Source of the DNA: Escherichia coli
GTDB taxonomy: Bacteria; Pseudomonadota; Gammaproteobacteria; Enterobacterales; Enterobacteriaceae
Length of the DNA: 64,000 nucleotides
Assembly (NCBI RefSeq): GCF_045037415.1
Contig: NZ_CP173438.1
Reading direction: 5' to 3' (one strand)
Made by a program: the position numbers. This document shows positions 6,001 through 9,000 of the stretch, in pieces (position 1 is the first letter of the stretch; each line of letters starts with the position of its first letter).

Positions 6001-9000
6001 CATTTGTTTTATGCTAAGATTTTAAAATTGGATAATTAGAACAGGAATGGATTTTCTTCTACATACAGTAAATATAATGCGTCATATCTTCCTGATATAA
6101 TTACCTTTGACTTCTCTTTTATTTCCATCTGGTAATATTTGAGTGCAAAAAAAGGCAATAATAATATCGCAAAAGAAAACGTTAACAACTATCGAAAATG
6201 CTCGTTTTAAAAAGGTATGATGTTCTCTGATAGTGTGTGAAGTGATATTTTTGTGATGTTTTAGATATGTAATAATAAAATGGGTTAACGTATGTTGAAA
6301 TTATTTATTGTGCAAACCACTGATAGATCATAATCCAGTACATCTTTACAGTGCTGCACTGTATCGCTGATAACTAAGCAGCTCACTGATACACCATGCT
6401 GGACGCGATAATTGGAATCTCACGCAGGGAGTACTGTGTAAATAGCAAAATCGCCTGATGCGCTACGACTGTCAGGCCTACAAATAACATACAATTCATC
6501 GAATTATCATAACGTTGTAGGTCGGATAAGACGCGTCAGCGTCGCATCCGACATAAATAAAGCGCATTTTTCTAACAACCTGTGGGGGAATATAGCCGCT
6601 TTATTTCAGGCGATTACCCGCCTCATCAACCACTTTCTCGCCATCTTCCTTGGTGAACGCGCCTTTTTGCGCATCTGGCAGAATTTCCAGCACGACTTCT
6701 GAAGGGCGGCACAGGCGAGTTCCCTGTGGCGTCACCACAATCGGGCGATTAATCAGAATCGGGTGCTGAAGCATAAAGTCGATTAACTGATCGTGAGTAA
6801 ATTTATCTTCTGCAAGGCCCAGTTCCTCATACGGCTCGACGTTTTTACGCAGCAACGCGCGTACGGTAATCCCCATATCGGCAATGAGTTTTACCAGCTC
6901 ATCGCGCGTCGGTGGTGTTTCCAGATAATAGATAATGGTCGGTTCTGTACCGCTGTTGCGGATCATCTCCAGCGCATTACGCGACGTACCGCAGGCCGGG
7001 TTGTGATAAATGGTAATGTTGCTCATATCAGTATCTCATTACAATGTGAAAGAGAGGTGTAGCGCCAGCGCCACCAGCGTTACAAACCAAAGCGGACAAG
7101 TCAAAAACACATATGGTTTAACGAATATGTAAGTGTAGAGAAAGGTGTAGGTGTGAATTAAGCGTTGGGCATTCATTTGAAAGGAGGTCTGAATCAGGAC
7201 GTAAAAAAACCGACTTCGCGTCGGTTTTTTTACTGTTCAGCCCTGAGTTGGTGGCTCTGGCTGGAGTGAGATAGCCCACATCTAACAATGAGACATGCTC
7301 CGTGACAGGCAATGGATGAGTAAGCGGATGCATTCTCACTCCATCGCATGGAGAAAACGGGTGATTGATAAAGCAATCATCGTTCTTGGGGCGTTAATTG
7401 CGCAGCTGGAACTGATCCGCTTTCTGCTTCAGCTTCTGAACTGATAGCGGAAACGTAGCTAAGGGCTAAGAGCACACTACTCTTAGCCCTTTAACATTTA
7501 ACGCATTGTCACGAACTCTTCTGCTGCTGTCGGGTGAATGGCAACCGTGTTGTCGAAGTCTTTTTTGGTTGCACCCATCTTCAGCGCCACCGCGAAGCCC
7601 TGCAACATTTCGTCCATACCAAAACCAATGCCGTGAATACCGACAATCTTCTCTTCCGGTCCAATGCATACCAGTTTCATGCGACACGGCTGGCGGTGAG
7701 TGGTGACGGCGGTATACATCGCGGTGAAAGAGGATTTATACACTTTCACCTGATCGTCGCCGTACTGCTCGCGCGCCTGCGGCTCCGTTAAACCAACAGT
7801 ACCAATCGGCGGATGGCTGAAGACCACGGTCGGAATGTTGCTGTAATCCAGATGCTCATCCGGCTTGTTATTAAACAGGCGTTCAGAGAGACGGCGACCT
7901 GCTGCAACTGCCACCGGAGTCAGTTCCACTGCACCCGTGTTATCGCCCACCGCGTAAATACCTTCAACGTTGGTGTTTTGATATTTATCGACGACGATAT
8001 AGCCTTTTTCGTTGGTTTTAACGCCAGCGGCTTCCAGGTTGATGTTGTCATTGGCAGGCTCGCGACCAATCGCCCAAATCAGGCAATCCACCGTTTCACT
8101 GCGACCATCTTCCAGCTCCAGCGTCAGGCTGCCGTCGGCATTTTTCACCACCGCTTTCGGGATGGCGTTGGTATGCAACTGTGGGCCTTCGGCGTTCATC
8201 ACTTCGACCAGCGTTTCAGAGATCATCGGGTCGAAGCTGCGCAGCGGCGCATGTTTACGCACAAACAGATGCGTCTTCGCACCGAGGCCGTTAATCACGC
8301 CCGCCAGTTCAACGGCGATGTAACCCGCGCCAACAACCGCTACGCGCTCTGGCAAAGCCGGAAGGGCGAAGAAGCCATCAGAATCAATACCGTATTCCAC
8401 GCCCGGAATATCCGGGTGGCTCGGACGACCACCGGTGGCGATCAGAATATGATCGGCCGTGATGGTTTCGCCGTTGACTTCAATGGTTTTGGCATCAACG
8501 AAGCGGGCAAAGCCTTTGATTACATCAACGTTATTTTTACCGAGCACGTTCTCATAGGAAGTATGAATACGGTCGATATAGGCGGTACGGCTGGCGATCA
8601 ATGTTTCCCAGTTGAATTTATTGATAGTGGTATCAAAGCCGTAATCCGGGCCGTACATATGGATCGCTTCACGGATTTGTGCCGCGTGCCACATCACTTT
8701 TTTCGGCACACAGCCAACATTTACGCAGGTGCCGCCCAGCTCTTTGGCTTCAATCAGTGCGCATTTCTGGCCGTACATAGCCGCGCGGTTGATGGAGGCG
8801 ATACCGCCGCTGCCGCCGCCGATGGCGATGTAATCATAGTGTTTAGTCATGACATATTGTCCTTATCGTTGATTACCGCGATTGTAGCGCGAGACGTAAT
8901 AGGTGCCAGCAATGGCTGCAATTACTCTGGCACGATCCAGCTTACGGTGGCGTGCCCGGTGCCTGCTGGAACCAGTTTGCTGTGCAGCCACGGCAGCACG

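Follow-up and report, generated by a model that had tools for sequence, protein, structure and literature searches.

A promoterless dinQ/agr type I toxin–antitoxin locus in the arsC–gor spacer of Escherichia coli, probably a silent relic of a deletion between its own complementarity repeats

Does a locus that keeps an intact reading frame for the type I toxin DinQ, and only part of its agr antitoxin region, encode a toxin with altered control, or have both partners fallen silent? The locus in question lies in the spacer between arsC and gor in a stretch of E. coli DNA of 64,000 nucleotides (contig NZ_CP173438.1 of assembly GCF_045037415.1; hereafter the window). We found that a 199-bp deletion joins the 5′ end of the one surviving agr gene straight to dinQ nucleotide +89 and that it took away the promoters of both genes, the two LexA operators and dinQ nucleotides +1 to +88, among them the +44 processing site. 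Because both promoters and the LexA operators are lost, the locus is most likely silent and out of the SOS regulon. We assign a probability of roughly three in four to this reading, in which the window carries a transcriptionally decapitated relic of the dinQ/agr toxin–antitoxin pair.

What the deletion removed and what it left

The K-12 dinQ gene is driven by a LexA-controlled promoter, and processing of its transcript at +44 yields the sole translatable dinQ mRNA (Weel-Sneve et al., 2013, PMC3567139; Kristiansen et al., 2016, PMC5066626). Read along the dinQ strand, with the numbering and element coordinates of PMC5066626, the K-12 locus runs from agrB and agrA through the agrA promoter to the LexA operators and dinQ promoter (TACTGTATGATTATCCAGTT), followed by +1, the +44 site, the AgrB target (G88–A119), elements 3 and 4 with the Shine-Dalgarno (SD) sequence, the open reading frame (ORF) and the terminator. 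Using motif mapping and multiple alignment of the window with five other E. coli alleles, we located the agr promoter, the +44 region and the LexA box TACTGTATGATTATCCAGTT in all five (K-12; APEC O1:K1:H7 E16002, here L002; W444, here L003; L004; and L005) and found them gone from the window, which in the multiple alignment also lacks the dinQ −35 and −10 elements. Searches of the spacer returned no CTG-N10-CAG motif, and the best match to the 20-nt LexA consensus had 9 mismatches versus 5 for the true box. Both this box and the dinQ promoter are present in K-12, E16002 and strain 21AR0173 (L015), as is the constitutive σ70 promoter of agr (TTGCAA-17-TAGCAT); in the window the agr promoter, whether with a TAGCAT or a TAGTAT −10 element, has been deleted. 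What is retained of dinQ starts at CTCTGG (7255), the equivalent of +89, and comprises elements 2 (G94–G106), 3 and 4, the last with the SD, followed by the ORF and the terminator. Gone from the +1 transcript are element 1 (U16–C28) and the +44 site.

The features of the locus are given below in window coordinates; K-12 coordinates are those of the reference locus L001 (MG1655 3645500–3651500).

6601–7026, minus strand: arsC (arsenate reductase), 141 aa, intact; from the ORF list, with 93.9% identity to K-12 4677–5164 and annotated as arsC in relatives
7027–7087, minus strand: 3′ remnant of arsB (last 49 bp) and the arsB–arsC spacer; from BLAST to K-12
7076–7104, minus strand: hybrid ars promoter-like site of putative function; 8.57 bits with a position weight matrix (PWM)
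7201–7285, minus strand: body of an Agr-family antisense RNA, complete, single copy, without a promoter of its own; Rfam RF02891 (AgrB)
7203–7231, no strand assigned: Rho-independent terminator of Agr, symmetric (A7-stem-T7); inside the Rfam alignment, with one loop mismatch to the K-12 agrA and agrB terminators
7255–7290, no strand assigned: single fused repeat CTCTGGCTGGAGTGAGATAGCCCACATCTAACAATG, the scar of the 199-bp deletion, which is both the first 31 nt of agr (minus strand) and, on the plus strand, the AgrB target of dinQ (+89 to about +119); from alignments, equal to the dinQ-target repeat of L015
7255–7497, plus strand: dinQ mRNA remnant, equivalent to +89 to +331; from alignment to K-12, with element coordinates from PMC5066626
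7350–7353, plus strand: dinQ SD sequence GGAG; from the sequence, equivalent to G184–G187 of PMC5066626
7361–7444, plus strand: DinQ ORF, 27 aa, GTG start, L15Q (T→A at 7404); from the sequence and the ORF list, annotated as WP_023363328.1 by the Prokaryotic Genome Annotation Pipeline (PGAP)
7461–7491, no strand assigned: terminator hairpin shared by dinQ and gor; from the sequence, with the same hairpin in K-12
7498–8850, minus strand: gor (glutathione reductase), intact; from the ORF list and BLAST to K-12

The toxin gene itself is preserved, as a preliminary description made by reading this DNA had claimed. The DinQ ORF extends on the plus strand, convergent with gor, from a GTG at 7361 to a TGA at 7442–7444 and has the attributes of a dinQ/agrB toxin (a small hydrophobic ORF of 27 aa with a GTG start and an SD). 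Its product, VIDKAIIVLGALIAQLELIRFLLQLLN, is identical to K-12 DinQ at 26 of 27 residues, the exception being residue 15, where glutamine replaces leucine. On the opposite strand, positions 7201–7285 match the AgrB family of Rfam over its whole length (model 1–84 of 84; 91.6 bits versus a gathering score of 40; E = 2.4e-16) and fold into the family hairpins and terminator (−33.6 kcal/mol, z = −6.2). The hairpin at 7203–7231, AAAAAAACCGAC-TTCGC-GTCGGTTTTTTT, is the terminator of this RNA, in agreement with the earlier proposal that it marks the 3′ end of a surviving agr-type RNA; being symmetric, it probably also blocks plus-strand transcription arriving from the arsC side. The suspicion that the antitoxin had been partly deleted was correct in that only one of the two agr genes is present, without its promoter, and alignment to K-12 did not recover both agrA and agrB in full; the body of the surviving RNA is full length. 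The agr 5′ end and the dinQ remnant overlap over 7255–7285, so the window does not have the arrangement given in T1TAdb, with the antisense gene 5′ of the toxin mRNA gene and not overlapping it. Complementarity over about 31 nt between the Agr 5′ end and the dinQ 5′ untranslated region (UTR; G88–A119) is trivially present, both repeats being one stretch (7255–7290) read from each strand.

The locus differs from K-12 by two separate deletions. In L001, gor occupies 800–2152, dinQ 2206–2289 (minus strand), agrA 2564–2645 and agrB 2795–2876, with arsR starting at 3029. BLAST aligned window 7560→7254 to K-12 2090–2396 (the end of gor, the dinQ ORF and part of the dinQ 5′ UTR; 94%), window 7287→7090 to K-12 2793–2990 (agrB and its 3′ flank, ending 39 bp before arsR; 88%) and window 7087→6600 to K-12 4677–5164 (the last 49 bp of arsB and arsC). 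The first 100 nt of the middle block also align to agrA (90%). Homology to K-12 dinQ begins at L001 position 2396 and lies only downstream of it, the alignment then jumping to agrB and its 3′ flank. Missing are the interval from the AgrB target to the agr 5′ end and, at junction 7088/7089, arsR with most of arsB (L001 2991–4676); of the arsRBC operon, only arsC and the last 49 bp of arsB are left. The arsC–gor spacer (7027–7497) measures 471 bp, matching the first estimate of about 470 bp without arsR and arsB, versus 876 bp for the gor–arsR spacer of K-12 in the current annotation (823 bp in PMC3567139). The arsRB junction reads ACAAAC-CA-AAGCGG, with no real microhomology. We rejected the idea, implied in the preliminary description, that agr was lost as part of the arsRB deletion, because 170 bp separate the two junctions (7088/7089 and 7255–7290) and because the dinQ/agr module is intact in some genomes that have lost arsRB (L002 and L015).

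The content of the 199-bp deletion bears directly on the proposal of a toxin with altered control, that is, an SOS-inducible DinQ that retains its own signals after partial loss of the AgrA/AgrB antitoxin. One agr copy fewer than in K-12, and no promoter in front of the remaining copy, would agree with such a de-repressed toxin. However, the alignment contradicts it, because the same deletion also cost dinQ its promoter, its two LexA operators and nucleotides +1 to +88, and likely silenced both partners. Furthermore, the loss of agrB alone in K-12, with dinQ intact, leads to UV sensitivity (PMC3567139), a defect unlikely to have become fixed in the approximately 820 genomes of successful lineages. 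We regard a de-repressed toxin as close to untenable.

Origin and spread of the fused allele

The fused allele is common. Of 5,426 complete E. coli genomes, 1,105 have the arsC–dinQ–gor arrangement (at least 80% of the query), and the 173-bp promoter/LexA region is present in 4,611 and missing in 815. The 89-bp fusion junction is contiguous in 824 genomes and 100% identical to the window in 591. Sequence identity of 100% over the first 25 kb relates the window to ST131 genomes, including EC958, JJ1886, JJ1887 and O25b:H4-ST131 strains, and the same 471-bp fused spacer occurs in CFT073, NRG857c, Nissle 1917, ATCC 25922, MS20657, ECAMP047, KKo003 and MS1737. A 611-bp stretch is found unchanged in hundreds of independent complete genomes. 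An assembly artefact was ruled out by the presence of the fused allele in more than 800 independent complete genomes.

The closest unfused relatives with the same arsRB deletion revealed how the junction could have formed. In APEC O1:K1:H7 E16002, 21AR0173 and ChlosBP-23-1 (L014), the spacer is 670 bp long and contains one agr gene and a complete divergent promoter region. The agr repeat (CTCTGGCTGGAGTGAGATAGCCATCATCTAACGCAT) and the dinQ-target repeat (CTCTGGCTGGAGTGAGATAGCCCACATCTAACAATG) of 21AR0173 lie 199 bp apart and are identical in their first 22 nt, and the single repeat of the window equals the dinQ-target copy with no difference. The flanks in 21AR0173 are identical to those of the fused CFT073-type allele, with a length difference of exactly 199 bp; the window, of the ST131 type, differs from 21AR0173 at 7043, 7078, 7299 and 7404. 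Judged by sequence, strain 21AR0173 carries an exact unfused progenitor haplotype. The identity of the repeats and the exact 199-bp difference argue for a crossover or slippage event within the 22-nt identity block as the source of the window allele.

We propose that the ancestor of this B2 sublineage had the order arsC, one agr, the agr promoter, the LexA operators and dinQ promoter, dinQ and gor, and that the 5′-terminal 31 nt of agr formed, together with the AgrB target of the dinQ 5′ UTR, a direct repeat whose copies lay 199 bp from each other. Slippage during replication, or a crossover, in the 22-nt block would have deleted the 199 bp between the repeats in one event, taking at once the two promoters, both LexA operators and dinQ +1 to +88 with the +44 site. 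The product would be a promoterless Agr body head-on to a promoterless 3′ portion of dinQ (+89 to +331) with its ORF intact. Such a one-step loss would be genetically safe, because it has no toxin-only intermediate. We also considered the fused arrangement as the ancestral one and rejected it, given that other phylogroups and the closest B2 haplotype all carry the 199 bp and that the fused repeat is the exact product of a crossover between the L015 repeats.

A minor variant of the fusion in FEX669 (L009 924–959, equivalent to window 7255–7290) has the agr-type core GATAGCCATCATC followed by the dinQ-type AATG, and this type of core is present in at least six genomes (FEX669 and at least five others). 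Such a junction is what a crossover in the right-hand 8-nt identity block would leave in the same progenitor, and it suggests a second, independent 199-bp deletion from the same kind of parent. Repeat-mediated deletion seems to have occurred in phylogroup B2 two or more times, one progenitor haplotype giving rise to the window type and to the FEX669 type.

The L15Q substitution provides a relative date for the deletion. Wild-type DinQ (WP_001295215.1) is identical across every other RefSeq-annotated allele examined, and the L15Q form (WP_023363328.1) is found only on the ST131-type fused allele, where it travels with G→T at 7299 and G→A at 7043. The exact 60-mer carrying L15Q is present in 547 genomes. 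The fused alleles of CFT073, NRG857c, MS20657, ECAMP047, KKo003 and MS1737, in which the protein was checked, encode wild-type DinQ; for Nissle 1917 and ATCC 25922, the fused junction alone was examined. The presence of wild-type DinQ in other fused alleles means that the deletion is older than L15Q. The substitution, having arisen afterwards, fits relaxed constraint and is probably neutral. Among the fused alleles sampled there are 5 single-nucleotide polymorphism sites in the 471 bp.

Beyond the fused alleles, the 13-nt core of the repeat (window 7268–7280) is hypervariable among E. coli (GAGAGTTCTTATC in K-12, GAATGCCCACATC in CT30 and GAATGCCATTATC in W444). The core in the dinQ target and that in one agr copy vary together, a pattern suggestive of gene conversion or of co-evolving pairing specificity. 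Strains also differ in agr copy number: one in W444 (arsRB intact), one in B2 (arsRB deleted) and two in K-12, CT30 and DSM 101139. This variation is consistent with unequal crossing-over in the 231-bp agrA/agrB tandem. In some genomes PGAP annotates as ‘hypothetical protein’ ORFs that span agr genes and the dinQ promoter region (L005 1710–1925 and L014 828–1001, both on the minus strand), which are probably spurious calls on non-coding RNA genes.

Expression potential of the fused locus

To gauge whether new promoters could have replaced the deleted ones, we scored the locus with a σ70 PWM, using positive controls and 1,000 shuffles. The K-12 promoters scored 10.43 bits (agrA and agrB), 9.18 bits (Pars) and 7.74 bits (dinQ). 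Between the agr terminator and the dinQ GTG (7232–7360, plus strand) the best site reached 3.83 bits, and the best minus-strand site upstream of the agr 5′ end, TTGCCT-16-CATTGT, reached 5.31 bits. Neither was better than shuffled sequence, as both scores fell below the shuffle median and 85% and 83% of the shuffles, respectively, did at least as well.

Several points weigh against silence. The PWM is a weak discriminator, with 17% of the shuffles of 7232–7360 (plus strand) reaching the score of the genuine dinQ promoter. A general promoter/terminator scan was negative in the window but was blind to the mapped K-12 promoters of agrA, agrB and dinQ and to the agr terminators, and we set its negative result aside because this K-12 positive control had failed. 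Silence is, moreover, deduced from the missing promoters and not from expression. Every fused allele examined keeps an intact ORF, SD, Agr body and pair of terminators, a state compatible with recent neutral loss or with some retained function. Finally, the gor terminator has a poor U-tract on the minus strand, and read-through from gor could yield an antisense RNA that contains Agr.

One kind of retained function would be a new, overlapping cis-antisense pair in place of the divergent, trans-acting module, with weak cryptic transcription of dinQ. In this scenario, dinQ would be transcribed from a cryptic promoter such as TTGAAA-19-TAAAAA at 7177–7207, starting inside the terminator hairpin and so bypassing it, to give an mRNA without the element 1 lock. 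The weak TTGCCT-16-CATTGT site, or else read-through from gor, would supply an Agr RNA that pairs with this mRNA without a mismatch. The necessary parts are there: elements 2, 3 and 4, the SD, the ORF and the terminators are intact, complementarity between Agr and its target is 100% by construction, and weak promoter-like sites exist, one with a −35-like hexamer whose TTG is made by a B2-specific A at 7312. Yet the candidate sites score at or below the medians of shuffled sequence and are also found in unfused alleles, with no known role there; the minimum free energy fold of the hypothetical 7232–7497 RNA holds the SD in the 3:4 hairpin; and, in the commonest fused allele, L15Q introduces a polar residue into the transmembrane helix. 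We consider a neo-functional pair of this sort unlikely. As for position 7312, it is A in most B2 alleles and G in K-12, W444, CT30 and the fused B2 strain KKo003. On the minus strand the A completes TTGCCT, and it is this hexamer that acts as the −35-like element of the single weak promoter-like site lying upstream of agr. The A is no adaptation that followed the deletion, because unfused B2 alleles have it too.

Read-through from gor is also the basis for a reading in which dinQ is dead and the Agr RNA, ending at 7203–7231, is kept for other targets, such as plasmid dinQ-like (dql) mRNAs. The gor terminator lacks a good minus-strand U-tract, the fused alleles sampled do not differ from one another in the Agr body and terminator outside the variable core, plasmid dql genes have been described (PMC5066626) and the junction search returned 46 plasmid places with dinQ/agr-like sequences. 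However, a span of 85 nt and little divergence time leave the conservation without statistical power, the RNA has no promoter, and we obtained no evidence of dql genes on ST131 plasmids. Retention of Agr for other targets seems very improbable to us. Neither the cis-antisense pair nor the retained Agr is positively supported, and a silent relic is the reading that we prefer.

Outside the dinQ/agr remnant, the arsRB junction sits within the spacer of the ars promoter. The −35 element TTGACT (7104–7099) and the ArsR operator region are retained, and the arsB 3′ end supplies a new −10-like hexamer, TGtAACGCT (7081–7076), about 50 bp upstream of arsC. This hybrid site scores 8.57 bits versus 9.18 for K-12 Pars, and arsC may be expressed from it without ArsR control. 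Farther away, window 1021–1052 (plus strand) matches the Rfam shuA/chuA 5′-UTR thermoregulator (RF02597; 60.1 bits versus a gathering score of 58), which fits the chu haem-uptake genes that neighbor this region in B2 strains. A sub-threshold naRNA4 match (a REP-like palindrome; 29 bits versus a gathering score of 59.5) at 6520–6563, downstream of arsC, is probably an ordinary REP element.

Significance and relation to known systems

PGAP labels the fused dinQ throughout as ‘damage-inducible type I toxin DinQ’, and a toxin–antitoxin survey calls the dinQ locus ‘conserved’ in NRG857c (PMC7232551), a strain that carries the fused allele. Our searches of the literature on dinQ together with phylogroup, ST131, CFT073 or uropathogenic strains found no description of the fused allele or of the deletion. 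About 15% of complete E. coli genomes, with ST131, CFT073 and Nissle 1917 among them, have a dinQ labelled as a damage-inducible toxin yet without LexA operators and both promoters. Results on K-12 DinQ (membrane depolarization, UV sensitivity of agrB mutants and persistence models based on SOS toxins) should not be transferred to the fused lineages. The locus also shows, as a clean case from nature, how the complementarity repeat of a divergent type I pair can provide a safe, single-step way of losing that pair, and fused CFT073 and unfused 21AR0173 form a near-isogenic natural pair for testing DinQ function.

The closest known system is dinQ/agrAB of K-12 (PMC3567139; PMC5066626), which occupies the same site next to gor and shares with the window DinQ (26/27), the GTG start and SD, 5′-UTR elements 2–4, the dinQ terminator and an AgrB-family body with its terminator. 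Unlike K-12, the window has one agr instead of two, has lost arsR and arsB next door, and lacks the agr and dinQ promoters, both LexA operators and dinQ +1 to +88 with element 1 and the +44 site. The dinQ/agr family is defined as non-overlapping and divergent (T1TAdb; PMC8594479), whereas in the window one and the same stretch of DNA makes up the 5′ end of agr and the target in dinQ. The unfused B2 allele (21AR0173, ChlosBP-23-1, E16002 and the type strain DSM 30083) has the arsRB deletion and the single agr in common with the window but keeps the 199 bp with the promoters, LexA operators and dinQ +1 to +88, and its DinQ is wild type.

The tisB/istR-1 module has the architecture of a K-12-type dinQ locus, being SOS-induced with divergent promoters, a LexA box and complementarity at a distance. 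This lineage has lost that module too, at a different locus outside the window and by a route that was not repeat-mediated. No match to the K-12 tisB/istR module was found in 1,067 of the 5,426 complete genomes. In ST131 strain MB1341 (L017 1955–2200 versus K-12 L016 1108–1756), 649 bp with istR, the LexA box and tisAB are replaced by 116 unrelated bp between ivbL and ysdE, with no ORF left, and the same absence has been reported for NRG857c (PMC7232551). ST131 therefore appears to be without both SOS-inducible membrane toxins. A broader, joint reading would cast the sense/antisense repeat as its own deletion substrate, used at least twice in B2 and sparing the cell the lethal stage of a toxin that has no antitoxin, with extraintestinal pathogenic E. 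coli (ExPEC) free of SOS toxins or a new cis-antisense module as the outcome; we offer it tentatively, as a combination with perhaps an outside chance of holding in full. If true, ST131 and ST73 (including CFT073 and Nissle 1917) would lack either SOS-inducible membrane-depolarizing toxin, and SOS-linked persistence and fluoroquinolone tolerance could be changed in pandemic ExPEC lineages.

Type I relics with recognizable ORFs have a precedent in the chromosomal hok/sok loci of K-12, which are non-functional and were mostly inactivated by insertion sequences or rearrangement. The inactivated hok/sok loci of K-12 are alluded to in PMC7232551. In the fused locus, by contrast, the deletion probably had the module's own sense/antisense repeat as its substrate. 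It is not a new kind of system; it is a real, widespread and apparently undescribed structural allele of a known one, most likely non-functional and best classed as a remnant of the dinQ/agr family rather than a functional member.

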